DNA from: Escherichia coli
GTDB taxonomy: Bacteria > Pseudomonadota > Gammaproteobacteria > Enterobacterales > Enterobacteriaceae
Direction: 5' to 3' (one strand)
Assembly (NCBI RefSeq): GCF_017348835.2
Contig: NZ_CP072315.1
Length of the DNA stretch: 64,000 bases
Shown here: one piece after another, positions 833 to 28,143 of the stretch
Layout: every line of letters starts with the position of its first letter
Numbering within the stretch: position 1 is the first letter of the stretch
Notes under the pieces: model-generated
Told to the model about the DNA's origin: nothing
The model's input: the letters and a program-made list of their open reading frames with translations, nothing else
The model's database searches: none
Translations under genes and position numbers: made by a program

Positions 833-2014
833 CTAAGACCAGCGGTAATACTTAAAGTAGTCCTCATTTACAGCCAAAAACTCCCTTAAACCGTTCATTA
901 ATCCCTTTTCAAACGCTGTAACGATAAACCGGTATCCGTCCAGTGTTTCAATGTAGTAGATCCCGCCCGGTGTTATTCCAACATGCAACACCTCGGCTGT
1001 CATCATAAACTGGCCTTCCGGAAAATCATGCGACAGGTATATAAAACCCGTCGTGGCCGGTGCGGGTGTGGCATTCACTAAGACACCGTTAAACTGCTGC
1101 CCGTGCCTCGCCGGTACAAGCTCACTTCCCCTGGTTGACTTATCGAGCAGCCCCTTAACATCTTTTTGCTCTTTAGATGAGGTATAGCCCCGCACATCAC
1201 TCCCATCACCTGGGCGAGAGCCGGTGCCGACATGTGCAAGACGACGGTAAGCGCTGCGCATATTGATGTGGCAGGATGCCCCGGCTCTACCCTGAAGCCT
1301 TACGCCAAAATCTTCGCAAAGTAATAAAATCTGACGTAGCTGGTGTTCATACACGGACGCAGAAAGTGAAAGGTTGAAACTGGAAAAGGTCAGTTCTAAA
1401 ACCTTTTCCCGTTTGTCATTGAAATGTGCTTCCAGCCTGATGATTGGCTTTTCCGACATTGCAAAAGCTTTGTCCGTTGCTCTGTACCGGCATTCATCTC
1501 CGAAACATTCTTCAACAACGCTGGCTATAACCGTGTCGTGATCGCCATCTTCCGGAGCTGGCACAAAGATTTCAAATTGTGCCGGTGTCTCCGGCTCCAG
1601 CAGAACGGGATATAAACGCGGAGAATTAAGCAATGCGCATTCAGAATTAATGAGCTTAACCCAGGCGCTTTTGTCGTCCGGATCCTTAAGCTGCTGTCCA
1701 AGGTTATCGCAAAAGTCTACTATCTGACGGGTATGCTCATCCGTGACTGCACAGATCAGGTTAAGACCATGCGTGGCCATACTCAATTCCCGGGTTCGGG
1801 ACTGGGAATTGATCGACCAGGGGTTAAGTGAAAGCGAAATAGGGCTTATGGAAGGGACGACCGTCTCATTCTGCAAATCTGTAAGCTGGCAGTTCGCAGT
1901 AGGCTTCGGGGAAAGGGTACTAAATATGTAACTTGCCTGTTGTTTAGTACTGGCCTGGATATAAAACATCGCGTCCATGCTTGTATCCCGGGATGAAATT
2001 GAAAATAGCTTCAT
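833..2014 (-). CDS. hypothetical protein (393 aa), immediately downstream of higB-like gene
   Basis: ORF starts 9 nt after the higB-like stop with an AAGG RBS; no HTH or other motif recognised. Confidence 0.5.
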   Translation of the reverse strand: MKLFSISSRDTSMDAMFYIQASTKQQASYIFSTLSPKPTANCQLTDLQNETVVPSISPISLSLNPWSINSQSRTRELSMATHGLNLICAVTDEHTRQIVDFCDNLGQQLKDPDDKSAWVKLINSECALLNSPRLYPVLLEPETPAQFEIFVPAPEDGDHDTVIASVVEECFGDECRYRATDKAFAMSEKPIIRLEAHFNDKREKVLELTFSSFNLSLSASVYEHQLRQILLLCEDFGVRLQGRAGASCHINMRSAYRRLAHVGTGSRPGDGSDVRGYTSSKEQKDVKGLLDKSTRGSELVPARHGQQFNGVLVNATPAPATTGFIYLSHDFPEGQFMMTAEVLHVGITPGGIYYIETLDGYRFIVTAFEKGLMNGLREFLAVNEDYFKYYRWS

Positions 2015-2022
2015 TTTTAACC

Positions 2023-2319
2023 TTAATGGATGAGCGATTTATAGTCATGTGCTGACAAATGGACATTATGTGCGCCATCATTCCATTCAAAGAATAATCG
2101 ATACTTAGAGTTTACTCGAATGGAGGAATAACGGTTTGACGTCATTCTTAAGCGTTCATAACGCAAGCTGTTGGATAATAACTCCCGCTCACTCTGGACA
2201 TTATCCAGCGTTTCGAGTCGACACAGAATCGCGTTAATAATTTCAGAAGGAATACCTGCCGTTGTTTTTCCATTACGGAAGAACTTTTCAAGCCGTCTGT
2301 CTTTAAATGAATGGATCAT
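2023..2319 (-). CDS. higB: HigB-like type II toxin (RelE/ParE superfamily, plasmid killer family)
   Basis: N-terminal MIHSFKDRRLEKFF and C-terminal YRLFFEWNDGAHNVHL..HDY resemble HigB family signatures; GGAGG RBS upstream. Confidence 0.6.
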   Translation of the reverse strand: MIHSFKDRRLEKFFRNGKTTAGIPSEIINAILCRLETLDNVQSERELLSNSLRYERLRMTSNRYSSIRVNSKYRLFFEWNDGAHNVHLSAHDYKSLIH

Positions 2320-2368
2320 AGTTCCTCCGTAATAATTGACCTTAAAATTAAATTAAAAGGGCTTTGAA

Positions 2369-2839
2369 TTAATGAATCCCTAAAATGCGGGCGGCGACTG
2401 CCAGCTGCTTATCACTTAACTGACGCTGGTGGGTTAAAGAAGACTTAAGGCTTTCCAGAAAATTATTACTGCTGGATTGCTGGGTGATTGCATCAACCAT
2501 TTTTTGATGAGATCTGCACCATGCATTGAACGCAGAGTTGTGGGCGTTTTCAGTCCTCAAACGCTCGTTTTGCAAGGATGCTGACACTTTGCGGGCAGCT
2601 TGAGCATTAATGCGGTACAGCGCATTCAGCGTGTAAGCAGTGCGGGTCGTTTCGAGGCTGTAACCCGTGGCTTTACAAGCCATACAGCGACTTCTATAAA
2701 AATGCTTACGCTCTCCCCGACCATTGCATTTATCGCAAAGAATACGAAAAGTATATTCCGCAGTACCTTTTACAGAATCAACACAGCGGATTTTTGCGCT
2801 GGAGATTTCAATTCCACTGCGATCATAATATTTGGTCAT
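2369..2839 (-). CDS. zinc-ribbon protein (156 aa), function unknown
   Basis: Paired CxxC motifs (CDKCNGRG ... CMACKATG); GGAGG RBS upstream. Confidence 0.5.
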   Translation of the reverse strand: MTKYYDRSGIEISSAKIRCVDSVKGTAEYTFRILCDKCNGRGERKHFYRSRCMACKATGYSLETTRTAYTLNALYRINAQAARKVSASLQNERLRTENAHNSAFNAWCRSHQKMVDAITQQSSSNNFLESLKSSLTHQRQLSDKQLAVAARILGIH

Positions 2840-3105
2840 AATGTGATTCCTCCGGTTAGTTCTGGAGTAATCATGACAGAATGAATCTACTGGCTAATAA
2901 CCTGAGAGTAAATATTTTAAAAAAACATTGAGAGAGGGTCTGCAAATTTATACACGAAGGATTCAAATATAATTTTGTTTAAAAAATTAAGAGCATTCTG
3001 AAGTAAAAGTGCATCAAAAAGCATTCATGGATAAATCATGTACTGGTGCCAGCCATTTAAACGCGGGCATTGTTCCGGAGTGATTAAACGGTTTAGCATC
3101 ATAGA

Positions 3106-3132
3106 TTAAAACCAAAAGGAAGGCGTCCTTCC
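3106..3132 (-). terminator. putative rho-independent terminator downstream of Ig-like gene 1
   Basis: Perfect hairpin GGAAGG-CGT-CCTTCC followed on the minus strand by TTTTGGTTTT. Confidence 0.5.
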
Positions 3133-3273
3133 CGTCTCGGGAATATTACTTTCCCGTTTGCAATTTAAGAGCCACTTAATGAGAAAGTAATAATTAAGTC
3201 ATGCTCAACTCTACATATTACATTGAGGATGGCGTAACAGGGTACGGCATACTACCGCACCCTTCTGAAGAGC

Positions 3274-5664
3274 TTATGTTTGAGGGAATTCTATAGCAAA
3301 TGTGGCCGTGCCAGATTGACCACTTACAGCGGGAGTAACGGGATACGTGCGCTCTTCACCATTACCAAGATCCAGTGACAGCGATTTAGTTTCACCAGGC
3401 TGGACCGTAACTCCGGCAACCGTAACGCCGAACTGGGCATTTTTCTGAACAGTCAGGGTTCCGTTTAACTGTCCGGTAATGATAGAACCGTCCTGACGCC
3501 GCAACACACTGGTTCGGATGATGGCCAGCGGCGTGTTGTCCGTTGCTTTCAGTGCTACGGCTGTGGCCAGCGTCTTGAGATTATCCAGCATAATCAGATT
3601 CGCAGGCTGGTAGGTAAAATTAAGCGTTTTAGTGGTCCGGTTACCTGATTCGTCAATAGCCAGTGCCTCCAGATGATACATCTGTCCCGATTCGTCAGTG
3701 TTGGGGAAGATTCTGGGGTATTCCGGAATAAAGACATCCTTGGATAACGGCGTGAATGCCAGGGTGACCTTTTCAGAGTTAGGTCCACCAGCGAGCTGAA
3801 GCGATGTCAGGGAAGCATCCCCAGAGGCATCAGTAACGCTTATGCGAAGGTTCTCAAGCCCTTTAACCAGTTTTCCTTCTGCGTCTGCGCCATTAAAACT
3901 GAACGCGATAACCGGAAGCGTTGAGTCAATTTTCAGCGGTGCATTAAGCGTTTTGGTTCCGGTGTTTCCAACAAGATCCGTGGCAGAGACGCTAACCACC
4001 GTATAATCCCCGTCCGGTAGACCAGCGTATGAGAAGGTGGCGTTTTTGGTTTTATAATCGCTTTCACTGACGGTCACAGGCTTCAGCGTGAAAGGTTCCC
4101 CCCGGGCATTTTTAAGGGTGGCTTCGAAAACTTTGGTATCCCAGTAGCTGATGTTCCAGGCGTTGACGCGATCATTATCGGTGGCCGTCATAGTGATTGT
4201 CTTGGAGGCCTTGTTTACCTGAGCGACATTAACCACCGGTGGGTTGTTATCCCAGATAACCGTAAAATTACCAGCAAGCGCATCGAATATGCTGTCACCA
4301 TCTTTTCCCGAGTAAAGGTGCAGATACTCAAATCCTTTGTCACTGGTGTAGTTGAAGTTAACCGTCATCTCGCATGAACTTTGTCCGATAGGTATAGTGC
4401 AGAACCAGGCTGCATTTTTTACCGTTCTGAACTTTTGCACGTATGGTCGGGGTTCAGCGGTTACCTTTATGCGGCTAATGGTGGCGGTTTTAACGCTGAT
4501 TGAGGCCTGAGTTAACCACTCACTGGTATCACTCCGGTACATCTCTTTAGCCACTATCTTCGGGGCTATTTCCATCGCCGGGGCTGGAGTGAAGTTGAGG
4601 GAGTTATGATGAATTCGTCTTACTCCTCCTGCCAGAGTCTGGAATTCATGATAAGTATCCCCCACATTGGGATATATGTATTTGAAAGTATAAATATTAT
4701 AAGTGCTATCGGACGTCTGGAAATTCGAGTCCGCCCAGCCATATTTGGAACCGTTAACAGCAGTAAAGTCACTTTTTTTCCTTAATACCCGTACGGAAAT
4801 AGGGTTCTGGAAGACGGTCATGCCAGACTGATAAGTGACCCATGATCCGGTAGTGGCGTCCTGCACCTGGATGATATCGTCAGGCTTAACCCGATCAATT
4901 ACGCTTCGGCGGCTTAGTTCGATCCTGTTTCCCGCTTTGTCATAAAGGTAGATCCCCACTTTATATTCAGAGCGGTTTTCCGGTGCCAGGGCATTGCTGC
5001 TTGCGTCGGCGACTTGAACGGTTACGCTACCTTCCACTGTATTAATTTCCGCTGGCTTTTTACGCTCCACTCCAGCGGCATCGGTTATGAAATATTCAGC
5101 ATTAGCAAGCCCGGAACCTTTATCACTCAGTCCATTAAAGACCAGTGCCTGGACGCTGGCGTACTGCATACCGGCTGGTACTGAAGTGAAGATCGCTTCG
5201 CTGCCAAAGTTCCACCCGTTTCTCGTATAACTTATGGTACCCGTTGCCGGAGGCGTTCGGTCAATTGCAAGCGGGTAATCCTGCCGGGAGACCTCCTTCC
5301 CTTGCAAGTCGGTAATCACCTCTCTGAGGGTGAAGCTATCTTCTCCCATCGCTGGTACGGTCAGAGTCTTGCCGTAATAATCAAAGCCTGTCGAAGATGT
5401 GGTACGGTCATCTACGGTAACCAGGCTGCTTTTCGTGCTCCAGATGAGGCTCCCGTCACTTTTCAGCAGACTGAGCGTAATATAACGGTCCAGACCGGAA
5501 ATAACGGCAACGTCAAAGCTCGTTACCGGATTAATCCATACGGATGCAGGCGATACGGTCTTTTTAACGTTCAGGGTATCTTTAAAGCTGAATTCTGCGA
5601 TTTCAGCGGAAGCTCCTGCGCTGAAACCTGCAAATGCAATAAGCAGGGCTAGTTTGATTTTCAT
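3274..5664 (-). CDS. large secreted Ig-like/adhesin-like protein, ~800-aa paralog 1
   Basis: Start moved to the Met preceded by AGGAGA RBS (track start 5691); signal peptide MKIKLALLIAFAGFSAGASA; shares CxIPxGxxSC motif and C-terminal GLENLRI..LAGGP..NFTYQPANL module with ORFs at 9285 and 17587. Confidence 0.7.
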   Translation of the reverse strand: MKIKLALLIAFAGFSAGASAEIAEFSFKDTLNVKKTVSPASVWINPVTSFDVAVISGLDRYITLSLLKSDGSLIWSTKSSLVTVDDRTTSSTGFDYYGKTLTVPAMGEDSFTLREVITDLQGKEVSRQDYPLAIDRTPPATGTISYTRNGWNFGSEAIFTSVPAGMQYASVQALVFNGLSDKGSGLANAEYFITDAAGVERKKPAEINTVEGSVTVQVADASSNALAPENRSEYKVGIYLYDKAGNRIELSRRSVIDRVKPDDIIQVQDATTGSWVTYQSGMTVFQNPISVRVLRKKSDFTAVNGSKYGWADSNFQTSDSTYNIYTFKYIYPNVGDTYHEFQTLAGGVRRIHHNSLNFTPAPAMEIAPKIVAKEMYRSDTSEWLTQASISVKTATISRIKVTAEPRPYVQKFRTVKNAAWFCTIPIGQSSCEMTVNFNYTSDKGFEYLHLYSGKDGDSIFDALAGNFTVIWDNNPPVVNVAQVNKASKTITMTATDNDRVNAWNISYWDTKVFEATLKNARGEPFTLKPVTVSESDYKTKNATFSYAGLPDGDYTVVSVSATDLVGNTGTKTLNAPLKIDSTLPVIAFSFNGADAEGKLVKGLENLRISVTDASGDASLTSLQLAGGPNSEKVTLAFTPLSKDVFIPEYPRIFPNTDESGQMYHLEALAIDESGNRTTKTLNFTYQPANLIMLDNLKTLATAVALKATDNTPLAIIRTSVLRRQDGSIITGQLNGTLTVQKNAQFGVTVAGVTVQPGETKSLSLDLGNGEERTYPVTPAVSGQSGTATFAIEFPQT
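4765..4775. promoter_or_regulatory. palindrome site AAAGTCACTTT (dispersed family)
   Basis: 11-bp core palindrome read directly, inside Ig-like gene 1. Confidence 0.3.
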
Positions 5665-6224
5665 GGGTTGTCTCCTGATCAGGTTCCCCATGATACTTTT
5701 TCAGTGTTCGAGATCTTTTCGGGAAAATAGCTAATTTTAATGTTTTTCTTTTCTGCCCGGCGGGACCTGTTTTGTTCCATTTTTATCAGTGAATGTAATG
5801 AGACCGATTCGTCCACTGTTAACAGTGTAAAAGCGAGGTTGAAAGCCAGCTTTGAGAAGGTTTTCAATAGCTGAAAAAAAATCTTTTTTGAGCATTGGTT
5901 TCAAGATGGTTTTCCTTTTATGCCCGGTGCCGCCGGGACGGTGGCATTAAATATACGCCATGTAAGTAAATTAATTTTTACCCATTTGATTGTCAATACA
6001 AACAAAAAATAAACCATGTTTATTATTTTACCAGCGATGCTATTTTAAAGTCCGTCTAAAATAAAAAACCAAAAAGTTAAATTTGAAGCCATCCTTCCTA
6101 AATTCATTTCTTGCGCATATTAGCCCCTGCTTTAAGTATATAATTTTTGAAAAAGTTGTCTGGAGGTTATTAGCTCGTGCATCTGGATTGTTAATATAAA
6201 GCCAACACAGAAAAGGAAAACAAA

Positions 6225-6989: not shown

Positions 6990-7069
6990 CCAAGGCCAAA
7001 TCTGAATTGTCCTGTTTAAGTAACCAACCCGCTGCCGCCAGGCGGGTAAATCCTCTTAATGGAGTTTTA

Positions 7070-7831
7070 ATGCAAATCTCAACTGAAGTTCTGAACGTCT
7101 TATCTCGCTGCCGTGCTGAAGGGAACTTTCTTTTCCTGGCCGACCAGCTCGACCGCAGCATTTATGTTAAGACAAACAAAGTGCTGGAAGCTGCCGGTGG
7201 CAAATGGAACCGAAAAGAGCAGGCACATATTTTTACGGCGGATGCAGCTGAGCGTATCGAGCAAATCATTCTGACAGGTTCGGTCGACATCCCACGTGAT
7301 TTGTTCAATTTCTTCCCTACCCCTGAGAATTTAGTCACAGATATGGTTCTACGCGCTGAACCAGCTGCCGGGGAACGTGTTCTGGAGCCTGAGTTTGGTG
7401 ATGGCCGCATTCTGAAAGCCTTAAAACTGGCGGCTCCGGATGCATTGATTACCGGGATCGAATTGAACGATGAGCGATTCCTTGCAGTGAAGAACGATAG
7501 TGTCCTTAGCACAGGGGCCGAGCTGGTGCATACCGACTTTCTTGGGTACCAGCCCGATGAAACTTTTGATGTTATCGTTATGAATCCACCATTCCTTAAA
7601 CGCTCTGACGTTAAACATGTCATGCATGCCATCGCAATGCTCGCTAAGCGAGGTCGCTTACAGGCCATTCTGTCAGCTGGGGTATTGTTCCGGGAAGACA
7701 CACTGACAAAAGCGCTCAGGGAGCGAGTCAAACAACTTGGCGGACAAATTTCGCCTCTTCCGGATGATACATTTAGGGAGTCCGGAACAAAGGTCAAAAC
7801 AGCCCGCCTTGAAATTGATCTTCGCCGCTAA
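7070..7831 (+). CDS. orphan SAM-dependent N6-adenine methyltransferase (NPPF type)
   Basis: Motif I LEPEFGDGRIL and motif IV VIVMNPPF; start set at the ATG with GGAG RBS 5 nt upstream (track start 7007); no adjacent restriction endonuclease. Confidence 0.65.
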   Translation: MQISTEVLNVLSRCRAEGNFLFLADQLDRSIYVKTNKVLEAAGGKWNRKEQAHIFTADAAERIEQIILTGSVDIPRDLFNFFPTPENLVTDMVLRAEPAAGERVLEPEFGDGRILKALKLAAPDALITGIELNDERFLAVKNDSVLSTGAELVHTDFLGYQPDETFDVIVMNPPFLKRSDVKHVMHAIAMLAKRGRLQAILSAGVLFREDTLTKALRERVKQLGGQISPLPDDTFRESGTKVKTARLEIDLRR

Positions 7832-9284: not shown

Positions 9285-11705
9285 ATGAAACATCTCGCTT
9301 TTATTACTGCTGTAGCCGGACTCGGTATGTCTGTTCAGGCCCCAGCTCAGATATATGAATCGGCCTTTAAGGACACGAACGGTATTGAGATCCACGCCCC
9401 GTCTTCTCGTCTTATGCTTAATCCGGCATCACCGGTAACTTTGACACTTATTTCAGGTCTTGATCGTTTCGTTAATGTCAAAGTCACGAAAGACACTGGA
9501 ACTGTCATTCTTAATACTACGACTACACGGACGGGTGTATCAGACCGACTAACAGCTGCTGACGGTAGTGAGTTCTACGGCAAAAAAGTAACTTTGCCTG
9601 CTTTGGGTGAAGGCAAATTTGTCGTTCAGATAAACGTGTTAGATCTCAATCAGAAGCCTGTAGCGACCTATAACTATAACTGGCTAATTGATGTCACCCC
9701 TCCAGCGGCAAATGCTCTTACCGCTAATACTGGTTCTGGCTCTACCGCTGGTGACGTGTGGAAGCTTGGATTAGAGGCAACGGGGCAGTATGACTTCACC
9801 TCTTCGGGCGTAAGTGATGCAAATGGTATTGATAAGGGCCTAATATATATTTACAGGCAGGACGGTAGCCTCTACAGCACTACACAGATGCAGTATGACG
9901 TATCCGGCCAAAAGATGTACCACACTTACTCTAAGAATTCAGTTAAGGGAACCGGAATACCAGACAGCAACCTGGATGAAGACTTTACTGCAAAAGTTGT
10001 TATCTTCGATAACGCAGGTAATAGCCGAACGCTGCCAACTCAAAAATTTCGCTACGACAACACGCTGGGTGAGATGACACTGTGGGCCGTTCATGATCCA
10101 AATACGTCTTCCAGCGTCGTACCCGGGGTTTCTAATTATCCGGCTTACAAAGCCGGTATGGTCGTTAACGAAAACCCTATTCGATTAGTCTACCGGATCC
10201 CAAAATCTAACTACCGTGCTTATTCAGAAGGTGGGCTTCAGTTCATCAATCAATATTCCGCCCCCAAAGAGATAGCTGTAGACAGCACTTATGCTTATGT
10301 TGAAATGACTCTTCCCTATGGCTCAATTAATGGGGATATGGCTCGTATGGCGAACTTTGGCCAGTGGGGAGGGTATTATCCGTCATACAGCCTCGTTCTA
10401 AACCCATCTGCAAACCAAACGCCTGCATTTGCGGGTACCTGGGTAGATTTCCTCGATGATAAGGGGAACTGGGTTAAGTGGAAGGATTTTGAGAGTGTGG
10501 CTTCATCACGACTGCCAATTAAAATTTCCCGACTTCGTTTTAACGTTGAAGCCCGGCCCTTTGCACAGGAGATCGGCGGTAAGGCGACCTGCACCATTCC
10601 GGCAGGAAAAACCTCGTGTGAAGCGCCTGAGACGTTTGATATGGCCTTGGGTACCCAGGGCTACAATAGAATCCTTTACTTCGTTCGCAGCATCAGCAAT
10701 CCCATTTTGCGGTCTGAGCAATGGATTATGACACGCTGGAACAATAAACAACTGCCGGTAATAAACTCGATATCATATGACGAGACTAACAAGCAGCTGG
10801 ATGTACTGGCGTCACTTGAAGGCGATGGTAACTGGTTCGACTCGGTCTCATTGAGGGAATTTTATCTTTCCGATAAGAACACCGGTACCCGGATGTCACC
10901 AACAGGCGTAATCAAATCTCGTATCTCAGGTAACTACACGATTGCTTATGATTTATCCCGTCAGTCTGAAGGAAAATACAACGTTGAGGTCAACATCAGG
11001 GACTTCTTCCAGAACCAGACCAATAAAACTTTCGGAGAAATTGCTCTGGATAACACTCCTCCGACAGTGGCCATAACATTCGACGGAAAGCCGGTAAAAG
11101 ACGATACGGTAGTGTACGGCCTGGAGAACCTCAGGATCGCTCTGGCAGATAATCTGACAACCCCGAGGATAACCCGTCTTCAGCTCGTAGGTGGCCCCAC
11201 AGCTGATAACGTTGAGCTTACGTGGTCACCGGCAGGCAAAGATACATACATGCCTGAGTATCCGAGGCTGTTCCCAAATTTCGAACCATCTGAAAATTAT
11301 TCAATTAGCGTAACAGTTGCCGATAGTCAGTCGAATACCAAAACCTATACTCAGAAGTTCAGTTATCTACCGAATAACCTTGTGCAGTTACATAATCTAC
11401 GCACATTGTCGGTCAGTTCACCTCTCAAAACGACAGATGGCGTACCACTTGCGTACCTGTCCACTAACGTTCTGCGTAAGACAAATGGAGAAATTGCTAA
11501 AGGGGTCCAGAACGCAACGCTGACTGTGCGGAAGGATGCAGCCTTCGGTATTAAATTTAATGGGGCACAGGCGGCTCCAGGCGAGTCAGTTGAGGTGCAA
11601 ATAGATATGGGCCAGGGGGATAATCTTCTGTTACCCGTTTATCCTTCCGAAAATGGGAAAGTTGGCACCTCAGAATTCATGATTCAGATCGACGAGTTGA
11701 AGTAA
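9285..11705 (+). CDS. large secreted Ig-like/adhesin-like protein, ~800-aa paralog 2
   Basis: AGGGGAA RBS; signal peptide MKHLAFITAVAGLGMSVQA; conserved ISGLDRF, ATCTIPAGKTSC and C-terminal GLENLRI..LVGGP..FSYLPNNLVQL module shared with paralogs. Confidence 0.75.
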   Translation: MKHLAFITAVAGLGMSVQAPAQIYESAFKDTNGIEIHAPSSRLMLNPASPVTLTLISGLDRFVNVKVTKDTGTVILNTTTTRTGVSDRLTAADGSEFYGKKVTLPALGEGKFVVQINVLDLNQKPVATYNYNWLIDVTPPAANALTANTGSGSTAGDVWKLGLEATGQYDFTSSGVSDANGIDKGLIYIYRQDGSLYSTTQMQYDVSGQKMYHTYSKNSVKGTGIPDSNLDEDFTAKVVIFDNAGNSRTLPTQKFRYDNTLGEMTLWAVHDPNTSSSVVPGVSNYPAYKAGMVVNENPIRLVYRIPKSNYRAYSEGGLQFINQYSAPKEIAVDSTYAYVEMTLPYGSINGDMARMANFGQWGGYYPSYSLVLNPSANQTPAFAGTWVDFLDDKGNWVKWKDFESVASSRLPIKISRLRFNVEARPFAQEIGGKATCTIPAGKTSCEAPETFDMALGTQGYNRILYFVRSISNPILRSEQWIMTRWNNKQLPVINSISYDETNKQLDVLASLEGDGNWFDSVSLREFYLSDKNTGTRMSPTGVIKSRISGNYTIAYDLSRQSEGKYNVEVNIRDFFQNQTNKTFGEIALDNTPPTVAITFDGKPVKDDTVVYGLENLRIALADNLTTPRITRLQLVGGPTADNVELTWSPAGKDTYMPEYPRLFPNFEPSENYSISVTVADSQSNTKTYTQKFSYLPNNLVQLHNLRTLSVSSPLKTTDGVPLAYLSTNVLRKTNGEIAKGVQNATLTVRKDAAFGIKFNGAQAAPGESVEVQIDMGQGDNLLLPVYPSENGKVGTSEFMIQIDELK
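9584..9595. promoter_or_regulatory. palindrome site AAAAGTAACTTT (dispersed family)
   Basis: Read directly; the same site plus flank (AAAAGTWACTTTGCCTGCT) recurs at 34713. Confidence 0.3.
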
Positions 11706-12275: not shown

Positions 12276-13985
12276 GAGCTACTGATTAACGTTGAACCAC
12301 GGCAGCCTGGCGGCTGCAAATTGAAAACCGCCCCGGTTCGTCCTGTTGTTGCCGCACGCCCCGCAGAATATGTATGCTCTGAGGACCTGTTTTATTAAGG
12401 ACTCATCCCCTTATGTTGACCCGCAAAAGTATCGATACAGTTCTGCTCTCTGTTGGTGCTGAGAAGCTCTCACAACGAGAATGGGACTGGATGAAAATGC
12501 TCAAACCCATGGACCCACCACCTGCGATGGTGACGACCTCCATCCTGAAGCGCCGTGGCGATACAGCAGCCCTTACCCTGCTACAGGATACCGGGGTTTA
12601 ATCCATCCTCATGTTGTCCGGTTTTACTCCCCGCCCTCTGAAACGTCTGTTCACAGCCAACCAGTGCTGGACGTCCTTCCTGGATGCGGGCGGTCTGCGC
12701 GATATCGAGGTTGAAGCCGTCACCAAAATGCTGGCCTGCGGCACACGGATACTGGGTGTAAAAGAGTTCGGGTGTGATAACCCGGACTGTCAGCACGTAA
12801 AGTACCTGACCAACTCATGCGGCAGCCGTGCCTGCCCGTCCTGCGGAAAGAAGGCCACAGACCTGTGGACAGCAACACAGCTGAATCGTCTTCCTGACTG
12901 CGACTGGGTACATCTGGTCTTCACCCTGCCGGACACGCTGTGGCCGGTGTTCGAAAGCAACCGCTGGCTGCTGAATGACGTGTGCCGTCTGGCGGTGGAG
13001 AATCTGCTGTATGCCGCCCGAAAACGGGGGCTGGAACCCGGTATCTTCTGCGCCATCCACACGTATGGCCGTCGTCTCAACTGGCATCCGCATGTACATG
13101 TGTCTGTAACCTGTGGAGGTCTGAATAAGCATGGTCAGTGGAAAAAGCTGAGCTTCCTGAAAGACGCGATGCGTTCACGGTGGATGTGGAATATGCGGCA
13201 GCTGCTTCTGAAAGCGTGGTCAGAGGGGATGGCAATGCCGGAGTCGTTGTCACATATCACGACGGAATCACAGTGGAGAAGCCTGGTGCTGAAATCCGGC
13301 GGAAAATACTGGCATGTGTACATGTCGAAGAAGACAGCCGGAGGGCGGAATACGGCACGCTACCTGGGTCGTTATCTGAAGAAGCCACCAATAGCGGCTT
13401 CCCGACTGGCTCATTACAACGGAGGGGCAAGCCTGAGCTTCCGTTACCTGGACCACAAAACGGGAGAAACGGCGACGGAAACGCTGACACAGCGTGAGCT
13501 GGTCGCGAGGCTGAAACAGCACATCCCGGAGAAGTTTTTTAAGATGGTGAGGTACTTCGGGTTCCTTGCCAACCGTGTGTGTGGAGAGAAGCTGCCGCAG
13601 GTGTACCGTGCACTGGGGATGGATAAACCGGAACCAGTGGCGAAAGTGTGCTATGCACAAATGGTGAAACAGTTCCTGAGTCGTGACCCGTTCGAATGCG
13701 TGCTGTGTGGCTGCCGGATGGTATACCGCCGGGCCATTGCGGGGCTGAATGTATCAGGGCTGAAGAAAAACGCGCGGGATATCAGTCTACTGAGGTATAT
13801 GCCGGCCTGACACAGGCTAAGTGTGCCCGGGAATCGGTGAAAGTATAAAAAACAGCCTGTTACGGTATAAAAATCGACCATACAGAGAGGGAAACCACCG
13901 GAGTGGTGGGAAAAGCAGAAAGGCTCACGTGGCATAAGGCGTGGACAATGGTATCGACTGGTTTTTCAATTTCCTATACGTGAAC
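12276..13985 (+). mobile_element. IS91-family insertion sequence (about 1.7 kb, IS1294-like size); boundaries approximate
   Basis: Carries the HUH-Y2 transposase gene; flanked on both sides by the same iteron family; hairpin CCACCGGAGTGGTGG near the right end; GAACC at both junctions. Confidence 0.55.
12611..13810 (+). CDS. tnpA: IS91-family rolling-circle (HUH, Y2) transposase
   Basis: N-terminal zinc-binding cysteines (CPSCGKK), HUH motif WHPHVHVSV, paired tyrosines RYLGRYL. Confidence 0.8.
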   Translation: MLSGFTPRPLKRLFTANQCWTSFLDAGGLRDIEVEAVTKMLACGTRILGVKEFGCDNPDCQHVKYLTNSCGSRACPSCGKKATDLWTATQLNRLPDCDWVHLVFTLPDTLWPVFESNRWLLNDVCRLAVENLLYAARKRGLEPGIFCAIHTYGRRLNWHPHVHVSVTCGGLNKHGQWKKLSFLKDAMRSRWMWNMRQLLLKAWSEGMAMPESLSHITTESQWRSLVLKSGGKYWHVYMSKKTAGGRNTARYLGRYLKKPPIAASRLAHYNGGASLSFRYLDHKTGETATETLTQRELVARLKQHIPEKFFKMVRYFGFLANRVCGEKLPQVYRALGMDKPEPVAKVCYAQMVKQFLSRDPFECVLCGCRMVYRRAIAGLNVSGLKKNARDISLLRYMPA

Positions 13986-15390: not shown

Positions 15391-16479
15391 TTAGCTGGCG
15401 TTGCTGTTCTTTTTCTGGCTTCGAAGACTACGAATATAGCGCAGTTCTTCAGCGGTTAAATCATGGACGGTAAGAACATCATCGCCGTCAATCGGGTCAG
15501 CTGGTGGGCATAACTCACCTTCTAAAACAGAAGACCCTGAGTTCTCTTCTTCATCTTCAACCACTTCTAAAGGAGGCTGAGTATTGTTCAAATTCAGATC
15601 GGGATCCCGCTTATGAATCTGGAAGTATACTTTTCCGTCTTTCTTAATTTCGGTGTACTTGAGGTATCCTATCGATGCCAACTCTTCAAGAGCCTTTCTC
15701 ACGGTAGCATTCTGACTATTTGCTCGTGTTTTGAGGTTCAGACGATTTTTCAGCCGAGTAAGGGATATCGGTATAGGATTTGGCGGTAATGACTCTATGA
15801 ACGTATAGAGAGCCTGGGCGCTTTCCTTCTTGGCCAACTCCTTAATTGCCTTCAGCTGCATCAAAACCTTATGATCGTATTGATAGAGCTCGAAAATCTT
15901 AGGATCAACCTGAAGGACAACCTGATCTGATTCCGGGTCTAACAGGGCAGACTGTACCAGATGCGTTGTATAGACTTTGGACGAGTTATTACTGGTGAAC
16001 GACAAGGTAACGGATGCTAACCTGCGTAAGGAGGCGTCTATACGTTTTCTGGACGCTGTAGATGAGCGATAATTTTCAGGCGTACATAGCTTGAGGAATT
16101 CAGTGAATTTTAAGCTTATCGTGTCATTGTTAATCGGATGATTGGCATAGGTTCGAATGATGCCCATCCACGTCTTAAAATCTACTGACATATTAAGACG
16201 CTCACCGACAATTGAAATATTGGTGAACCCCTCGCTCTCCATTAAAGAGAGCGTCTGTAACTCTTTCGTTGCGTCAAAGCCAACCGTTTTATATTCCCGA
16301 TTTTGACGCCCCACACTCTTTGGTGATGGGACGAACAGCCCGAGCCGCATCAAAGCAATAGACTGCACCGTACGGTTGCTGTTAGGACGCAAAATGATGT
16401 CTTTACCTGATTCTTTCTCTCTAACAGAGAAAGCCCTGGTGACCAGGTCCTGCTGCTCAGTATCTTTCTCTTTAGTCAT
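15391..16479 (-). CDS. iteron-type plasmid replication initiator (RepA/RepE-like, IncHI/RepFIB-type)
   Basis: 362-aa protein paralogous to the ORF at 29890 (shared LRLxxF, TDFKxWxGII, YDHKxL, ESIGYL motifs); flanked by iterons on both sides. Confidence 0.7.
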   Translation of the reverse strand: MTKEKDTEQQDLVTRAFSVREKESGKDIILRPNSNRTVQSIALMRLGLFVPSPKSVGRQNREYKTVGFDATKELQTLSLMESEGFTNISIVGERLNMSVDFKTWMGIIRTYANHPINNDTISLKFTEFLKLCTPENYRSSTASRKRIDASLRRLASVTLSFTSNNSSKVYTTHLVQSALLDPESDQVVLQVDPKIFELYQYDHKVLMQLKAIKELAKKESAQALYTFIESLPPNPIPISLTRLKNRLNLKTRANSQNATVRKALEELASIGYLKYTEIKKDGKVYFQIHKRDPDLNLNNTQPPLEVVEDEEENSGSSVLEGELCPPADPIDGDDVLTVHDLTAEELRYIRSLRSQKKNSNAS

Positions 16480-17340
16480 AATAAGTTATCACTGAATGTG
16501 TAAACAGATTGGTGAATAGTAAGCCCCAGCGAACTCTATGTCACTGGATGGATCATTGTGATGATCCATATCTGTGCATAAGTTCTACCTAAAAAAACGA
16601 CTCCACTCATTAAAACTTGGCAAAAACTCTTTGCATACAATGACCTGCAACTCTTATCAACAACGGATCAGATCAAGTTAAAAAGATCTAATGAAAAGTC
16701 ACTACTATTGTCGCTCTGATCACTACTGATGTCAAAAAACTCATTACCAACGTTATAATAATCACTACTAATGTCAAAATAATCACTACTGTTGTCACTG
16801 ATCACGTCTCAGGCCTTGTGCCGTCTGGCCTGGAGGCAGCGGGGATCTCTTTTGATCTATCAGGAACACTAAGGTACTAATTATTGGAACTACCTTGTGG
16901 AAAATGGGGATAAATAAATGCTTAGTTCTTATACAGGTCTCAACTTGCCTCCCTGATAAAAACTGTCGTCAAAGCTAAATCACAGCCACAGGCATTTTCG
17001 GTGGATAAATTTTTGAGAAATAGAAGCATACATGCAGACTCGTGTCGCAAGTAATTGAAAGTAATGATTTATTTAAATAATGCGAGTCACCTTACCTCAC
17101 AGTGGAAGTTTAAGTCTAACCTCACTACCATTGTCACTTAAAATCATTACCAACGTCGAAATAGTCTCTACCATTGTCTTTTAAGTCACTCCCGTTGTCA
17201 CTTATGTCGCTACTGTTGTCAGTGACAATGCTCCAGCCCAGTAACCATGCGGCCTACAGCGTACCGGGATCTTCTTTGTACTCTCTGGCACCTTTGGGAT
17301 CATTTATTGGATCTACATGAGGGATAAAATCTTTTGACGA
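16480..17340. other. putative origin of replication (oriV) for the rep gene at 15391-16479
   Basis: Two clusters of five ~21-bp direct iterons (TCACTACnnTTGTCA; 16690-16800 and 17100-17230), each followed by a GATC-rich segment; AT-rich. Confidence 0.5.
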
Positions 17341-17448
17341 TTTCGTAGTGCAGTTATACCAGCGACTTAGCAAGACAAAAGCTGCAATTTAGTGACGAGT
17401 TACTAGTCTGCCCAACAAGAGCAATGCAGAGAAGATATGTGGTGAAAT

Positions 17449-17482
17449 GACCATGGTAGTGAGTCTAATCACTACCATGGTC
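17449..17482. repeat. perfect 14-bp-arm inverted repeat of iteron-like half-sites (GACCATGGTAGTGA-6nt-TCACTACCATGGTC)
   Basis: Read directly; candidate Rep-dimer operator or terminator for the upstream Ig-like gene. Confidence 0.45.
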
Positions 17483-17586
17483 CGCAGTAAGCGTTACTTA
17501 CGCAATGAACGTCGGACTGATTTGCAACAACATGGGCTACGGCGCATCAGAAGGCGGCCGTTGTGCTTCAGCAAAACAGCCCTGCT

Positions 17587-20043
17587 TTATTTTAATTCTT
17601 CAATGTTAATCATGAACTCAGATCTGCCAGTAAGGCCGGATACAGCAGGGAAAATAGGAAAGCTACGGCTGTCCCCGAGCCCCAAATCCAGTTGAAGCTC
17701 TTTGCTTTCACCTGGCATCGCAGAAACGCCATTTACAGTCACGCCGAATGCAGCGTCCTTACGGACAGTAAGCACTGCGTCCTGAAGCCCTGTAGCGATT
17801 GAACCATCCTTTTTACGCAGCTGGCTGGCATACAGAACAGCCAGAGCAGTATTGTCAGATGTTTTGAGAGAAGCATTGACAGCTAAGGTTTTCAGATTCT
17901 CTAGCCTGACGAGATTGTTTGGAAGGTAGTTAAATTCGACTGAGCTTTCTTTAACGTTGTTCATCTCATCTTTGGCCTGAACTGTGAGAGTGTATGTTTC
18001 GCCTTCATTAAGAGACGGAAAGATCTTGGGATAATTAGGTGCATACAGGTTGTTTCCCAGATTCACCCAAGACAATTCCACCGCATCAGAAACAGGGCCA
18101 CCGCGAAGAGTCATACGGCTTAAGGATGGTTTAGTTAGAGCATCGGTGAGCTGTATACGGACGTTCTCCAGCCCATATACTGTTACGTTTTTGCTGATCG
18201 GTTTTCCTTCGTAGCTAATACTTACAGATGGTGCTGTATTATCAACGACAACTGTTTGATAAGGGAGGTTACCGGTATTGTTGAATGTATCTTGGGCATT
18301 AATCACCACGTTATAACTGCCTTCTGGTACCTCTTTCATGTTGAACTCATACGTGTAGTTCCCAGACGCCATATTTCTACCTGTTTGTTTGCCGGTTACG
18401 CTTATTTCTGCGTTGTTACGGTTTTTATCTGACAACCAAACTCGATTTACATAAACATGGTCGAAATATGAACCATCTCCAGGTTGATTCACGTAAACCT
18501 GGAGAATGTTGGTGGTTTCATTGTAATCAAATCCAGTGACGGAGGGACCCAGTGTATGCCAGGCTATATTCTCCCATATAGGGGCAAAGAAGGTTGCTTC
18601 GGTGGTTGACCTTACTTCATAGCCACTATGAAGATAACCGGTAGTGCCATTTATAATATCCTGGGGCAAAGAGACGGTACAGGTTGTTGAGCCAGCTGGA
18701 ATACTGCATGTTGCTCCGCCAGTGATTTTTTGATCATATGGCCTGGCCTGTACATTGAATCGGATATTAGTAAGTTTTATAGGCATATCAGATGCCTTGA
18801 ACAGGTTCCAGTTTACGCTGTTGAACCATGTTCCATCAGCCTTTTGTCGTTCTATGGGTGAACTTCCCCAAGCCGGACTCTTTACAGAGGCAGGATCCCA
18901 GTTGAGCCAGCTGGCATACTGACCAAGATCTCCTCCAGACCATTGATATGTATTCACAGGTCTATAGTAGTTTCCATCTAAGGCACCCTGTGGCAGCTTA
19001 ACTTCCACGTAGACATAGGTGGCATCTTCGGAAAGGACCTGTACTCCGCCATAGTTATTGGTAATGCTCATGCCACCATTTCGATATGGCTTCCAGTTAG
19101 TTCTTGGGATACGTATAACCAACTTGTAGGGGTTTTCCAGCACTGTAAGGCCTCGTTTAAACGGGACGTATCCCGAAGAAATGCCGGGTACAACACTGGT
19201 GCTTACACGTGAGTCATGAACTGCAAATGGCGTAAATTCTCCCATTTGATCGTCATATAAAAACCGCTGGGGAGGAATGTTAAGCGTATTTCCTGCCAGG
19301 TCCGTAACGATGAAATTGAAGGTGAATTCTTCATCAAGATCACTTGAGGGCATGCCAGCCTGGGTGTTCATATCTTTAATCCACGGATAGAACGCACGTT
19401 TATTGGCTGTGTCATAACTCAGGTTATTGTCGGAGACCACAGAACCATTACTTCGTTTAATGACAAGACGGATCTTGTCAATTCCACTAGCATCCTCAAT
19501 ACCGTCTGCAAATATAGAAAACTGGCCACTACCGCCTCGGCCCAACTCCCAAAGTGGCCCAGAAAGTACCATGTCGTAACCTGCGTTTTGACTCGGATAA
19601 ATACTCTTATAGCGTGGAGGAGTTGTATCAACGATGAAATGATAAGTAGATGTGCTCACTACAGTCTGGCGAATATCCAGAGTTTCATTGACTACAGTAA
19701 AGGTCCCTTCTCCGAGCGCCGGTAGAACCATATCCTTTCCATAGTATTCTGTTCCATCGGCAGCAACGATACGATCTGCAACGCTCGTTTTGGTCGAGAC
19801 GGAGGAATACATAACCTTTTTATCGCTGTCTCGTGTGACCGTCACTCGCTCGTACCGATCAAGACCCGATATCAAGTTCAGAGTCAAAACACCAGCGGGA
19901 TTAAGATATGTTTGTGTTGCAGGTTTGATATTCCGAACAGCCTTATTGGTATCTGTAAATGAGTAGCTAAATACCTGAGCATGTGCCGAAGATACAGTAG
20001 CAAGGGCAGTTGCAACCATGCAGCCAATTAGAGTTTTACGCAT
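17587..20043 (-). CDS. large secreted Ig-like/adhesin-like protein, ~800-aa paralog 3
   Basis: GGAG RBS; signal peptide MRKTLIGCMVATALATVSSAHA; ATCSIPAGSTTC and C-terminal GLENVRI..LRGGP..FNYLPNNLVRLENLKTLAV module shared with paralogs. Confidence 0.75.
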   Translation of the reverse strand: MRKTLIGCMVATALATVSSAHAQVFSYSFTDTNKAVRNIKPATQTYLNPAGVLTLNLISGLDRYERVTVTRDSDKKVMYSSVSTKTSVADRIVAADGTEYYGKDMVLPALGEGTFTVVNETLDIRQTVVSTSTYHFIVDTTPPRYKSIYPSQNAGYDMVLSGPLWELGRGGSGQFSIFADGIEDASGIDKIRLVIKRSNGSVVSDNNLSYDTANKRAFYPWIKDMNTQAGMPSSDLDEEFTFNFIVTDLAGNTLNIPPQRFLYDDQMGEFTPFAVHDSRVSTSVVPGISSGYVPFKRGLTVLENPYKLVIRIPRTNWKPYRNGGMSITNNYGGVQVLSEDATYVYVEVKLPQGALDGNYYRPVNTYQWSGGDLGQYASWLNWDPASVKSPAWGSSPIERQKADGTWFNSVNWNLFKASDMPIKLTNIRFNVQARPYDQKITGGATCSIPAGSTTCTVSLPQDIINGTTGYLHSGYEVRSTTEATFFAPIWENIAWHTLGPSVTGFDYNETTNILQVYVNQPGDGSYFDHVYVNRVWLSDKNRNNAEISVTGKQTGRNMASGNYTYEFNMKEVPEGSYNVVINAQDTFNNTGNLPYQTVVVDNTAPSVSISYEGKPISKNVTVYGLENVRIQLTDALTKPSLSRMTLRGGPVSDAVELSWVNLGNNLYAPNYPKIFPSLNEGETYTLTVQAKDEMNNVKESSVEFNYLPNNLVRLENLKTLAVNASLKTSDNTALAVLYASQLRKKDGSIATGLQDAVLTVRKDAAFGVTVNGVSAMPGESKELQLDLGLGDSRSFPIFPAVSGLTGRSEFMINIEELK

Positions 20044-27426: not shown

Positions 27427-28143
27427 TTAACTGTCTTGGAGTTTATTTAACTTAAAAACTGTTATTGCAGCATAATTTTTCGAATCAAATTCATAGAATT
27501 TTCTGACTTTTCCAGTCAAATGATAACGTTCACCCAATAAAATGTGATCCTGTTTATCGGCCGTTAAAGCGATCCCGTCATTTCTAACTTTACCAGTAAA
27601 TGTAAAAAAATAACTCCCTTTACTTTTTGCGTACGCGGCCCTGACTTCAGTAAATGTTAGTTCAATGCTTATGACCTGGCCGATATTGTAGCTATGTTTT
27701 AAAATTTCTTGTTCATTTTCCGGAGTTTCAGACAACATCACATCAAAAGTTGTAAAGAAACAATCCAGCTGGCGTTCTGTCAAGAAACGGTTATTGTCTA
27801 ATTGCGCCAATATACTATTAGAAAACTTAGTGTTAGCCTTTTTTGCTTTCTCAATAAGGACGTGGTTTCTGGATTTCCATGCTTCGAGTGTTGGGTTAAC
27901 ACGCAGTTCCGGAATGTTATCGAGAAAGGTAATTGGCTCTAGTGCCACTAATTTTTCAATAATGGGTCCAACTGTTTGTACCCCATGACACTTTTCACAT
28001 AAATCAGCCCCTTTGTGGCCTGTGCCCGCACATTCGTTACATTCTCTTTCGATAGGTGCATAATAATTTCCATCTCCGTTAAGTGATACATTCACTGAGG
28101 CTGGTACCATATGACCATCAAGAGTAAAGAAAAGAGATTTCAT
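27427..28143 (-). CDS. zinc-ribbon protein (238 aa), function unknown
   Basis: CNECAGTGHKGADLCEKCHG (CxxCxGxG-type) motif; last gene of operon with the ParB-like gene. Confidence 0.5.
   Translation of the reverse strand: MKSLFFTLDGHMVPASVNVSLNGDGNYYAPIERECNECAGTGHKGADLCEKCHGVQTVGPIIEKLVALEPITFLDNIPELRVNPTLEAWKSRNHVLIEKAKKANTKFSNSILAQLDNNRFLTERQLDCFFTTFDVMLSETPENEQEILKHSYNIGQVISIELTFTEVRAAYAKSKGSYFFTFTGKVRNDGIALTADKQDHILLGERYHLTGKVRKFYEFDSKNYAAITVFKLNKLQDS

Follow-up and report, generated by a model that had tools for sequence, protein, structure and literature searches.

Which gene product restrains a HigB-like toxin that has no recognizable HigA beside it? The question is raised by three genes near the start of a 64,000-nucleotide stretch of Escherichia coli DNA, the window analyzed here. 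An earlier note had described a 98-aa HigB-like protein followed by a 393-aa protein and preceded by a 156-aa zinc protein, and had suggested, as options of equal standing, a non-canonical pairing, a three-gene module, or a toxin domain drawn into another system. An open reading frame check recovered all three genes where the note had placed them, on the minus strand:

2369..2839, minus strand: zinc-finger gene, 156 aa, first in the operon, an ORF with a GGAGGA ribosome-binding site
2023..2319, minus strand: HigB-like (RelE superfamily) toxin gene, 98 aa, Pfam PF05015
833..2014, minus strand: 393-aa gene of a novel family, candidate neutralizing partner, named 'flavin reductase family protein' in RefSeq

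The whole window belongs to the IncHI2 plasmid backbone. The three genes adjoin one another on IncHI1 (R27, pHCM1), IncHI2, and more distant relatives, about 1,300 plasmids, and plasmid-collection records number about 1,299 for the toxin clade, 1,303 for the 393-aa protein, and 1,297 for the zinc-finger protein. The trio stays unbroken in six lineages, at identities down to 30%, even where the flanking genes differ or switch sides. The 393-aa gene begins 8 nt after the toxin gene in the window and 8–15 nt after it across six lineages, while 49 nt (40–63 nt across lineages) lie between the zinc-finger gene and the toxin; this spacing is conserved, as are the ribosome-binding sites. Purifying selection acts on each of the three genes. 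The toxin is the most conserved of them (90/83/60% identity; omega about 0.04), and the faster evolution of both other genes would be the pattern usual for antitoxins. Judged from its sequence, the trio is a conserved operon-like unit of the IncHI backbone. Conflict-type genes lie around it, among them orphan DNA methyltransferases and a PAPS-reductase-like gene. In one 20-kb plasmid record the intact trio is accompanied by downstream backbone genes, an observation that is neutral on functional linkage. We found no functional literature on these R27/R478 genes, and all hits to their ORF names were unrelated.

Two elements upstream of the trio bear on its expression:

2871..2904, minus strand: promoter-like element CAGGTTATTAGCC ... 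CATTCTGTCAT, 35–65 nt upstream of the zinc-finger gene
3117..3133, minus strand: terminator-like hairpin 3' of the upstream Ig-like gene, found by consensus scan only

When five diverged upstream regions are aligned, the promoter-like element is the only block that does not vary; it may contain an extended -10 (TGTCATnAT). Because the element escaped a strict sigma-70 scan, we only infer that it acts as a promoter. The hairpin is a predicted terminator that would mark the upstream operon boundary. The 49-nt and 8-nt gaps within the trio contained no plausible ORF of at least 20 aa that could be a hidden small antitoxin, and no repeats or Rfam match pointing to an RNA antitoxin.

The HigB family signatures reported for the 98-aa ORF held up in profile searches. 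Residues 4–88 matched PF05015 (HigB-like_toxin) with an E-value of 5.4e-18 and 65.7 bits against a cut-off of 27, and an orthologue with 60% identity matched the same family at E 7.5e-15. The toxin also matched PHROG 3066, 'toxin of TA system' (E 8.9e-18), and aligned with Proteus vulgaris HigB structures, including 4mct (E 7.5e-6). We presume from these matches that the protein is a ribosome-dependent mRNA endonuclease. Its pI is 9.7. One long-read metagenome contig with a shortened toxin was dropped as probable indel noise. Residues critical in P. vulgaris HigB are His54, Asp90, Tyr91, and His92 (PMC5027501). In the HMMER alignment, the toxin keeps Asp92 and Tyr93 of the catalytic DYH motif, while the equivalents of His54 and His92 are Glu55 (Lys in a distant orthologue) and Lys94; with both histidines replaced, toxin activity is not assured. 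Arg74, the Arg73 equivalent, is kept. Across four lineages the C-terminal DYKSL(I/V)H does not vary, and the longer segment HNV(H/Q)LSAHDYKSL(I/V)H is nearly invariant.

The 393-aa protein had no match in Pfam, NCBIfam, PADLOC, PHROG, or PDB sequences. Its N-terminal consensus MKLYGI was kept in all 15 aligned homologues, with M1 and K2 invariant, and the ATG at 2014 is the predicted true start; the RefSeq version has 381 aa and starts at 1978. As the earlier note had observed by eye, the protein contains no helix-turn-helix, a result of profile searches and two AlphaFold models that also gave no support to a cryptic HigA-like domain, the finding that the note had said would refute its reading. 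The database name 'flavin reductase' is wrong, since neither profile nor fold revealed an FMN-binding split-barrel (Flavin_Reduct). Instead, four lineage-specific alpha/beta units are followed by a linker and a beta-sandwich domain, and the regions of interest are as follows:

1286..2014, minus strand: residues 1–243, four beta-beta-alpha units (R1–R4), pLDDT 75–92
1400..1786, minus strand: residues 77–205, acidic core (pI 4.6), candidate toxin-binding region
833..1117, minus strand: residues 300–393, conserved domain of beta-sandwich plus C-terminal helix

Units R2 and R4 are homologous (hhalign 93%, E 3.7e-7), and the pI of the protein overall is 5.5. The region spanning residues 1–243 was found only in the toxin-linked 393-aa family. 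Its other matches were all short proteins (47–201 aa) with high scores, and judging from the matches alone we read these as probable gene fragments. The full-length family was found only in IncHI-type contexts, adjoining this toxin. The C-terminal domain carries the motif F-G-V ... T-x-E-V-V ... Y-I-E-T-x-D-G-x-R-[FY] ... N..YF..RW and also occurs as stand-alone proteins of 110–190 aa. Because these homologues do not lie beside toxins, the domain was ruled out as a dedicated antitoxin domain. It is common to small genes in mobile-element-type arrays and resembles small uncharacterized T4-like phage proteins.

Natural variants show which parts of the 393-aa gene are retained beside an intact toxin gene. 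In pYLMB165, IS10 is inserted after codon 30, leaving residues 77–393; the outward promoter of the element points at the remainder of the gene, where a restart is annotated at M77. A 1,163-bp deletion in CP077392 leaves residues 1–205, and in pR21.1436_215k an IS21 insertion at about residue 249 leaves residues 1 to ~249. The toxin and the zinc-finger gene are intact in all three plasmids, and residues 77–205 are kept in each. An IS26-flanked remnant without residues 1–128 also lacks the toxin, and one lineage has frameshifts in both the toxin and the 393-aa gene alongside an intact zinc-finger gene. Among 1,302 plasmids, the N-terminal half was incomplete in 11 and the C-terminal half in about 41, counts that include clonally related plasmids and so do not represent independent events. 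For pYLMB165 to count as support for a role of residues 77–205, the outward-facing IS promoter must drive a truncated product that begins at an internal start; failing such expression, the plasmid would carry a toxin that is tolerated in the absence of the 393-aa protein. These variants would fit a zinc-finger antitoxin or a weakly toxic HigB-like protein equally well.

Taken together, we tentatively favor a model with two partners, a HigB-type toxin neutralized by the N-terminal part of the 393-aa protein, to which we assign somewhat less than an even chance. Several sequence features favor it: the toxin-first order, with the smaller of the two gaps leading to the 393-aa gene; the exclusive co-occurrence of the full-length 393-aa family with this toxin clade; the retention of residues 77–205 in all three disruptions beside an intact toxin; the loss of the toxin along with the N-terminal part in other natural variants; the rarer incompleteness of the N-terminal half; the faster evolution of the partner genes; and the charge complementarity between the basic toxin and acidic residues 77–205. 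A partner of 393 aa without a DNA-binding domain would be atypical for a type II antitoxin, which counts against it, as do the two replaced histidines of the toxin and the undiminished stability of R27 from which the trio had been deleted (PMC4853401). The non-canonical pairing suggested by the earlier note is thus retained as the favored option, joining the toxin to the N-terminal part of the 393-aa protein. The three-gene module survives in part: the trio is conserved and operon-like, but the zinc-finger family occurs elsewhere without toxins, so the evidence leans toward a two-partner pair with a co-transcribed third gene.

Under the two-partner model, transcription of the trio as one operon would start from the conserved promoter-like element that precedes the zinc-finger gene. 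The second gene would encode a functional HigB/RelE-type ribosome-dependent RNase, and the neutralizer would be the 393-aa protein translated directly downstream rather than a HigA. The basic toxin would be bound and masked by the acidic N-terminal alpha/beta repeats (roughly residues 77–205). Neutralization would not depend on the C-terminal beta-sandwich, an accessory module presumably taken from a family of small mobile-element proteins, whose binding target may be a ligand or a protein. The basic zinc-finger protein, co-transcribed with the others, would more likely regulate by binding nucleic acid, or be the product of an independent backbone gene, than serve as the antitoxin. The gene layout, family assignments, conservation, natural variants, and lack of HigA and flavin-reductase folds are observed; toxicity and the identity of the toxin binder, like promoter function, are what we infer here.

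The best-supported alternative is that the 156-aa protein is the antitoxin, encoded ahead of its toxin as in RelBE and ParDE and zinc-binding like MqsA, with the 393-aa protein unrelated or accessory. We consider this unlikely, though a serious contender. The zinc protein recognized in the earlier note carries a probable DnaJ-type zinc finger, with CDKCNGRG and CMACKATG motifs whose Cys and Gly residues are invariant; two CxxCxGxG-type knuckles are followed by helices ending in a conserved F..SL...LS..Q motif. It matched PHROG 4046 (E 3.9e-12), PF00684 below the cut-off (E 4.7e-4; 20.8 bits versus 32.7), and Ydj1/DnaJ zinc domains in the PDB weakly (E 0.1–0.3). Homologues named 'YuiA family protein' on Klebsiella plasmids share 29–30% identity over residues 3–156 (E 1e-8 to 1e-15); no YuiA model matched the 156-aa protein in NCBIfam, and a search for literature on the 'YuiA'-type family found none. 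In favor of an antitoxin role, this gene is small, always adjacent and co-oriented, first in the operon, and faster evolving than the toxin. It is disrupted in 2 or fewer of 1,834 records, and it is intact in all three loci that combine a broken 393-aa gene with an intact toxin. However, the protein is strongly basic (pI 9.8; both halves 9.3–9.8), like the toxin. Its family occurs without toxins in phages, where it is fused to DUF6011, and on Klebsiella plasmids, where the homologue adjoins an Ig-like gene about 38 kb from a HigB-like gene; a paralogue also lies within the window at 27430–28143. Moreover, the gene survives where the toxin has decayed, the wider gap separates it from the toxin, and the closest toxin relatives lack a co-oriented upstream gene. 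Its basic charge and the toxin-free occurrence of its family make the protein more likely a regulator or passenger than an antitoxin.

MqsR-MqsA offers a similar arrangement, a RelE-superfamily toxin beside a small protein with a four-cysteine zinc site. MqsA lies downstream of its own toxin and has a C-terminal XRE helix-turn-helix. In contrast, the IncHI protein is encoded upstream, has DnaJ-type CxxCxGxG knuckles, is basic, lacks a helix-turn-helix, and has family members at loci without toxins.

It is also conceivable, albeit improbable, that the HigB-like protein is attenuated or domesticated, acting, for example, as a low-activity RNase or as an RNA-binding regulator of plasmid genes in a co-regulated, non-addiction backbone operon that would require no dedicated antitoxin. 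The replacement of His54 and His92 by Glu and Lys would fit this explanation, as would the tolerated disruptions of the 393-aa gene and the finding that several predicted toxins were non-toxic in the assay of Horesh et al. (PMC7192599). In addition, R27 lacking the whole trio showed no reduction in plasmid stability (PMC4853401), which gives no sign of classical addiction. Against attenuation, the toxin is under very strong purifying selection, its C-terminal segment is nearly invariant, Arg74 and the Asp and Tyr of the DYH motif are kept, and toxin and partner decay together in one lineage. Furthermore, RelE catalysis relies on Lys, Arg, and Tyr rather than His.

A further alternative, which we regard as decidedly improbable, is an abortive-infection or conflict system in which the 393-aa protein restrains the RNase until its C-terminal domain senses a phage or competing element and releases it. 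Conflict-type genes such as the orphan methyltransferases and the PAPS-reductase-like gene lie nearby, the C-terminal domain is shared with mobile-element gene arrays and resembles T4-like phage proteins, and R27 shows no stability phenotype. However, PADLOC models matched none of the three proteins (E up to 1), and natural plasmids frequently lose the C-terminal domain. An extended version makes the 393-aa protein a large modular antitoxin-sensor: N-terminal repeats would clamp the HigB-type RNase, C-terminal sensing of a phage, a competing plasmid, or a conjugation signal would trigger its release, and the zinc-finger protein would set expression. We hold that version, too, to be a long shot; if true, an uncharacterized three-component conflict system would reside on most IncHI resistance plasmids.

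Least probable is inherited synteny of three functionally unrelated backbone genes, with the toxin neutralized in trans by an antitoxin from elsewhere. In its favor, the loci all belong to a single related plasmid lineage, whose common descent accounts for some of the conservation, and the zinc-finger gene is far from the toxin on Klebsiella plasmids. Against it, the trio remains contiguous with conserved spacing and ribosome-binding sites while its flanks change, and the pD90-1 annotation, in which a ~1.7-kb stretch of the window is missing, shows no HigA-like gene within the window's first ~50 kb.

Returning to the two-partner model, one of the closest known systems is HigBA (Rts1 HigB-HigA of Proteus vulgaris), which shares the toxin family PF05015, the toxin-first order with a tightly spaced downstream gene, and a large conjugative MOBH-type plasmid. 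It differs in having an XRE-type HigA where the IncHI locus has a 393-aa partner with no recognizable DNA-binding domain, in lacking the extra upstream gene, and in the two of four critical P. vulgaris HigB residues that are substituted in the IncHI toxin. The nearest out-group toxins are followed, at a distance of 8–11 nt, by an acidic partner of 105–111 aa on Klebsiella MOBH plasmids and by a canonical HigA on an IncP plasmid; we found no homology of the Klebsiella partner to the 393-aa or the 156-aa protein. HigB-like toxins with non-HigA partners, both those in the Klebsiella survey by Horesh et al. 2020 (PMC7192599) and those with the 105–111 aa partner on pKOX_R1-type plasmids, likewise join a known toxin family to an unrecognized partner ('mix and match'). 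Toxin-to-methyltransferase synteny is common to the pKOX_R1-type Klebsiella plasmids and the IncHI locus, but the IncHI partner is unrelated in sequence to the Klebsiella one, has several domains, and is three to four times its size. The novel HigB antitoxins validated by Horesh et al. have predicted DNA-binding domains (PMC7192599). Tripartite systems (TAC HigB-HigA-SecB, PaaR-PaaA-ParE, omega-epsilon-zeta) also place a RelE/HigB-type toxin in a three-gene operon, whereas the IncHI trio has no SecB-like chaperone, HigA, or recognizable regulator domain. Neither toxin neighbor matched SecB or chaperone families, apart from the sub-threshold DnaJ zinc-finger motif.

Collectively, these findings make the IncHI trio a candidate type II toxin-antitoxin system with an unrecognized partner. 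Multidrug resistance in typhoid Salmonella is carried on IncHI1 and IncHI2 plasmids, as are mcr-1 and other resistance genes in E. coli, Salmonella, and Enterobacter, and of the three proteins of this conserved operon, two have either no annotation or a wrong one. Should the model hold, the HigB repertoire would gain an antitoxin of new fold without a DNA-binding domain, the C-terminal beta-sandwich would define a new domain family in many small mobile-element proteins, and the propagated 'flavin reductase' name would be corrected on more than a thousand database records. Given the stability of R27, candidate roles for the trio are defense, conjugation control, or competition.

The 98-aa protein, which the earlier note had called HigB-like, matches PF05015 (HigB-like toxin; E 5.4e-18) and the phage family 'toxin of TA system' (E 8.9e-18), and Proteus vulgaris HigB structures align with it over 84-93 residues, bearing out that assignment. 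Its gene is the middle member of a trio:

2839-2369, minus strand: 156-aa zinc-finger ORF, with a GGAGGA ribosome-binding site
2319-2023, minus strand: 98-aa toxin ORF, with a GGAGGA ribosome-binding site
2014-833, minus strand: 393-aa ORF, with AAGG ahead and its start 8 nt past the toxin stop

Between the trio and an upstream Ig-like gene lie an AT-rich spacer of 434 nt and a terminator-like hairpin. The DNA is identical (100 %) to that of IncHI2 plasmids, pD90-1 and pHXY0908 among them, and the window elsewhere carries repHI2, IncHI transfer genes, and partition genes. Compared with pD90-1, it has an extra segment of ~1.7 kb (12298-13978) and lacks an IS3-family element (about 30937), and so derives from another IncHI2 plasmid. 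At about 42-45 kb, a repeated region matches itself several times at 80-90 %. A 2.9-kb query spanning the trio matched 1,105 plasmid records; among 5,426 complete E. coli genomes it matched 260, nearly always on plasmids.

The trio behaves as a unit. It is contiguous in IncHI2, in IncHI1 (R27 64810-66827; pHCM1), and in four lineages further removed, where identity of the large protein falls as low as 30 %, while the flanking genes vary or switch sides. The Ig-like gene is present on one side or the other, or is missing, and downstream of the trio are TacA/GNAT modules or small genes, depending on the lineage. Across the plasmid collection, records number ~1,299 for the toxin clade, 1,303 for the large protein, and 1,297 for the zinc-finger protein, an essentially 1:1 co-occurrence. 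Upstream of the zinc-finger gene, 2904-2871 is the sole conserved block in otherwise diverged intergenic DNA, which would fit a shared promoter or operator. In two distant lineages, a TacA-like antitoxin and GNAT acetyltransferase toxin pair lies immediately after the trio (L006, 7295-8046) or past an 85-aa gene and a methyltransferase (L018, 6901-7658); the region is apparently an insertion hotspot for toxin-antitoxin modules.

Constraint is strongest by far on the toxin. Its identity between IncHI2 and IncHI1, L006, and the further distant lineage L003 is 90, 83, and 60 %, respectively, compared to 65, 56, and 34 % for the zinc-finger protein and 63, 47, and 30 % for the 393-aa protein. Toxin omega is about 0.04, with dS near saturation, and the C-terminal segment HNV(H/Q)LSAHDYKSL(I/V)H is almost invariant. 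Schureck et al. named His54, Asp90, Tyr91, and His92 as the four critical residues of P. vulgaris HigB (PMC5027501). The 98-aa protein keeps the Asp and Tyr as D92 and Y93 and has Lys94 in place of His92 and Glu55 in place of His54; from these residues, catalytic competence is plausible, not assured.

The trio most resembles a toxin-first HigBA module but lacks the defining HigA. The 393-aa protein had no match in Pfam, NCBIfam, PADLOC, PHROG, or PDB sequences. Hundreds of plasmid records carry the RefSeq/PGAP name 'flavin reductase (family protein)' for a 381-aa form starting at 1978; we rejected this name, as profile, sequence, and fold evidence all fail to support it. Because the N-terminus is conserved (consensus MKLYGI, with M1 and K2 invariant), the start at 2014 is correct. 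An AlphaFold model of the full-length protein (pLDDT 71) has three parts: four beta-beta-alpha units (residues 1-243), a poorly modelled linker, and a beta-rich C-terminal domain. When stand-alone homologues were added to the alignment, residues 240-393 were modelled confidently (pLDDT 87, pTM 0.80) as two helices, a five-stranded sheet, and a C-terminal helix. None of these models contains a helix-turn-helix, ribbon-helix-helix, or flavin-reductase fold, which, with no profile match, rules out a cryptic HigA domain; the earlier note's claim of a toxin without recognisable HigA therefore stands. The pairing of known toxins with unrecognised partners has precedent (PMC7192599), and the trio belongs among such cases. 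What is unusual is the candidate partner's size and architecture, its lack of a DNA-binding fold, and the constant third gene.

An exhaustive profile search of 1.84 billion representatives with the 393-aa protein returned only 38 matches, with full-length matches confined to IncHI-type proteins. Approximately 25 stand-alone proteins, 110-190 aa long with a few reaching 273 aa, match positions 295-394 only and belong to no Pfam family. In all three contexts examined, the homologue sits in an array of small unknown genes, most of them reading in one direction, with no toxin alongside; the contigs have 52-59 % GC. Among viruses, T4-like phages give the closest matches, small uncharacterised proteins that the predicted beta-sandwich-plus-helix fold resembles. 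The last ~95 residues (833-1117, minus strand) define an undescribed domain family.

In the upstream 156-aa protein, which the earlier note had called a zinc-ribbon protein, two DnaJ-type zinc-knuckle motifs precede helices closing with a conserved F..SL...LS..Q motif, and it is strongly basic. In phages, proteins of ~310 aa fuse this module to DUF6011 and have no annotated toxin for a neighbour. A distant, weakly similar 238-aa paralogue in the window (27430-28143, minus strand; RefSeq 'zinc finger-like domain-containing protein'), which shares the CxxCxGxG pair and has a similar downstream LTERQL-type motif, does not adjoin a toxin. On Klebsiella MOBH plasmids, 'YuiA family' proteins 29-30 % identical to the 156-aa protein are encoded about 38 kb from the plasmid's own HigB-like gene and adjoin a gene for a 29 %-identical Ig-like protein. 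This adjacency makes the zinc-finger and Ig-like genes an older syntenic pair. Three genes for large Ig-like proteins lie around repHI2:

3274-5691, minus strand: Ig-like (DUF4165/Big_3) protein
about 9285-11705, plus strand: Ig-like (DUF4165/Big_3) protein
about 17.6-20.0 kb (pD90-1 15899-18355), minus strand: third Ig-like copy

The closest out-group toxins (42-44 % identity), on Klebsiella plasmids, share downstream methyltransferase synteny with the trio toxin. They have no co-oriented gene upstream; 10-11 nt downstream is a gene for an acidic 105-111-aa unknown protein. Approximately 600 Klebsiella MOBH plasmids carry this arrangement, a 103-aa HigB-like toxin followed by the acidic protein, which has no known family and is a candidate novel antitoxin unrelated to the trio proteins:

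L019 3823-4158 and L020 3824-4141 (Klebsiella out-group loci): acidic 105-111-aa protein

A toxin relative at 38 % identity is partnered by canonical HigA. These out-groups place the partner downstream in this branch and indicate that it was swapped more than once.

The 393-aa protein is acidic (residues 77-205, pI 4.6), while the toxin and the zinc-finger protein are equally basic. In pYLMB165, an IS10-family element follows codon 30 of the 393-aa gene, its outward-promoter end facing the rest of the gene, with an annotated restart at M77. A 1,163-bp deletion in an Enterobacter hormaechei chromosome leaves residues 1-205, and IS21 interrupts the gene at about residue 249 in pR21.1436_215k. 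Toxin and zinc-finger genes are intact in all three. Residues 1-128 and the toxin are both missing from an IS26-bounded remnant. Among 1,302 plasmids, 11 have an incomplete N-terminal half and about 41 an incomplete C-terminal half, clonal relatives being counted separately. In one E. coli lineage, toxin and large gene alike are frameshifted and the zinc-finger gene is intact. Polarity, charge, natural experiments, and counts are together compatible with neutralisation by some stretch of residues ~77-205, the C-terminal domain being dispensable. We tentatively favour the N-terminal portion of this protein as neutraliser, a possible rather than probable assignment; the zinc-finger protein may instead be the antitoxin, or the HigB-like protein may be only weakly toxic.

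The whole trio falls inside the R27 Del4 deletion (6.7 kb, 60,355-67,055), which was obtained without lowering plasmid stability (PMC4853401). This gives no sign of classical addiction, at least beside the plasmid's partition systems and other modules. Of the 19 deletions attempted in that series, only deletion 18 was unobtainable (PMC4853401); its region might contain an antitoxin or other essential function. PADLOC models did not match the trio proteins. Around the trio are several orphan DNA methyltransferases (N6 type, Mrr_N plus N6_N4 type, Dam) and a large PAPS-reductase-like gene:

7007-7831, plus strand, and neighbouring backbone (loci L001 4621-5871; L008 23829-24641): methyltransferase/PAPS-reductase-like cluster

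This cluster recalls the anti-restriction or conflict regions found on conjugative plasmids. Such surroundings leave room for a role in defence or competition, which the trio may have.
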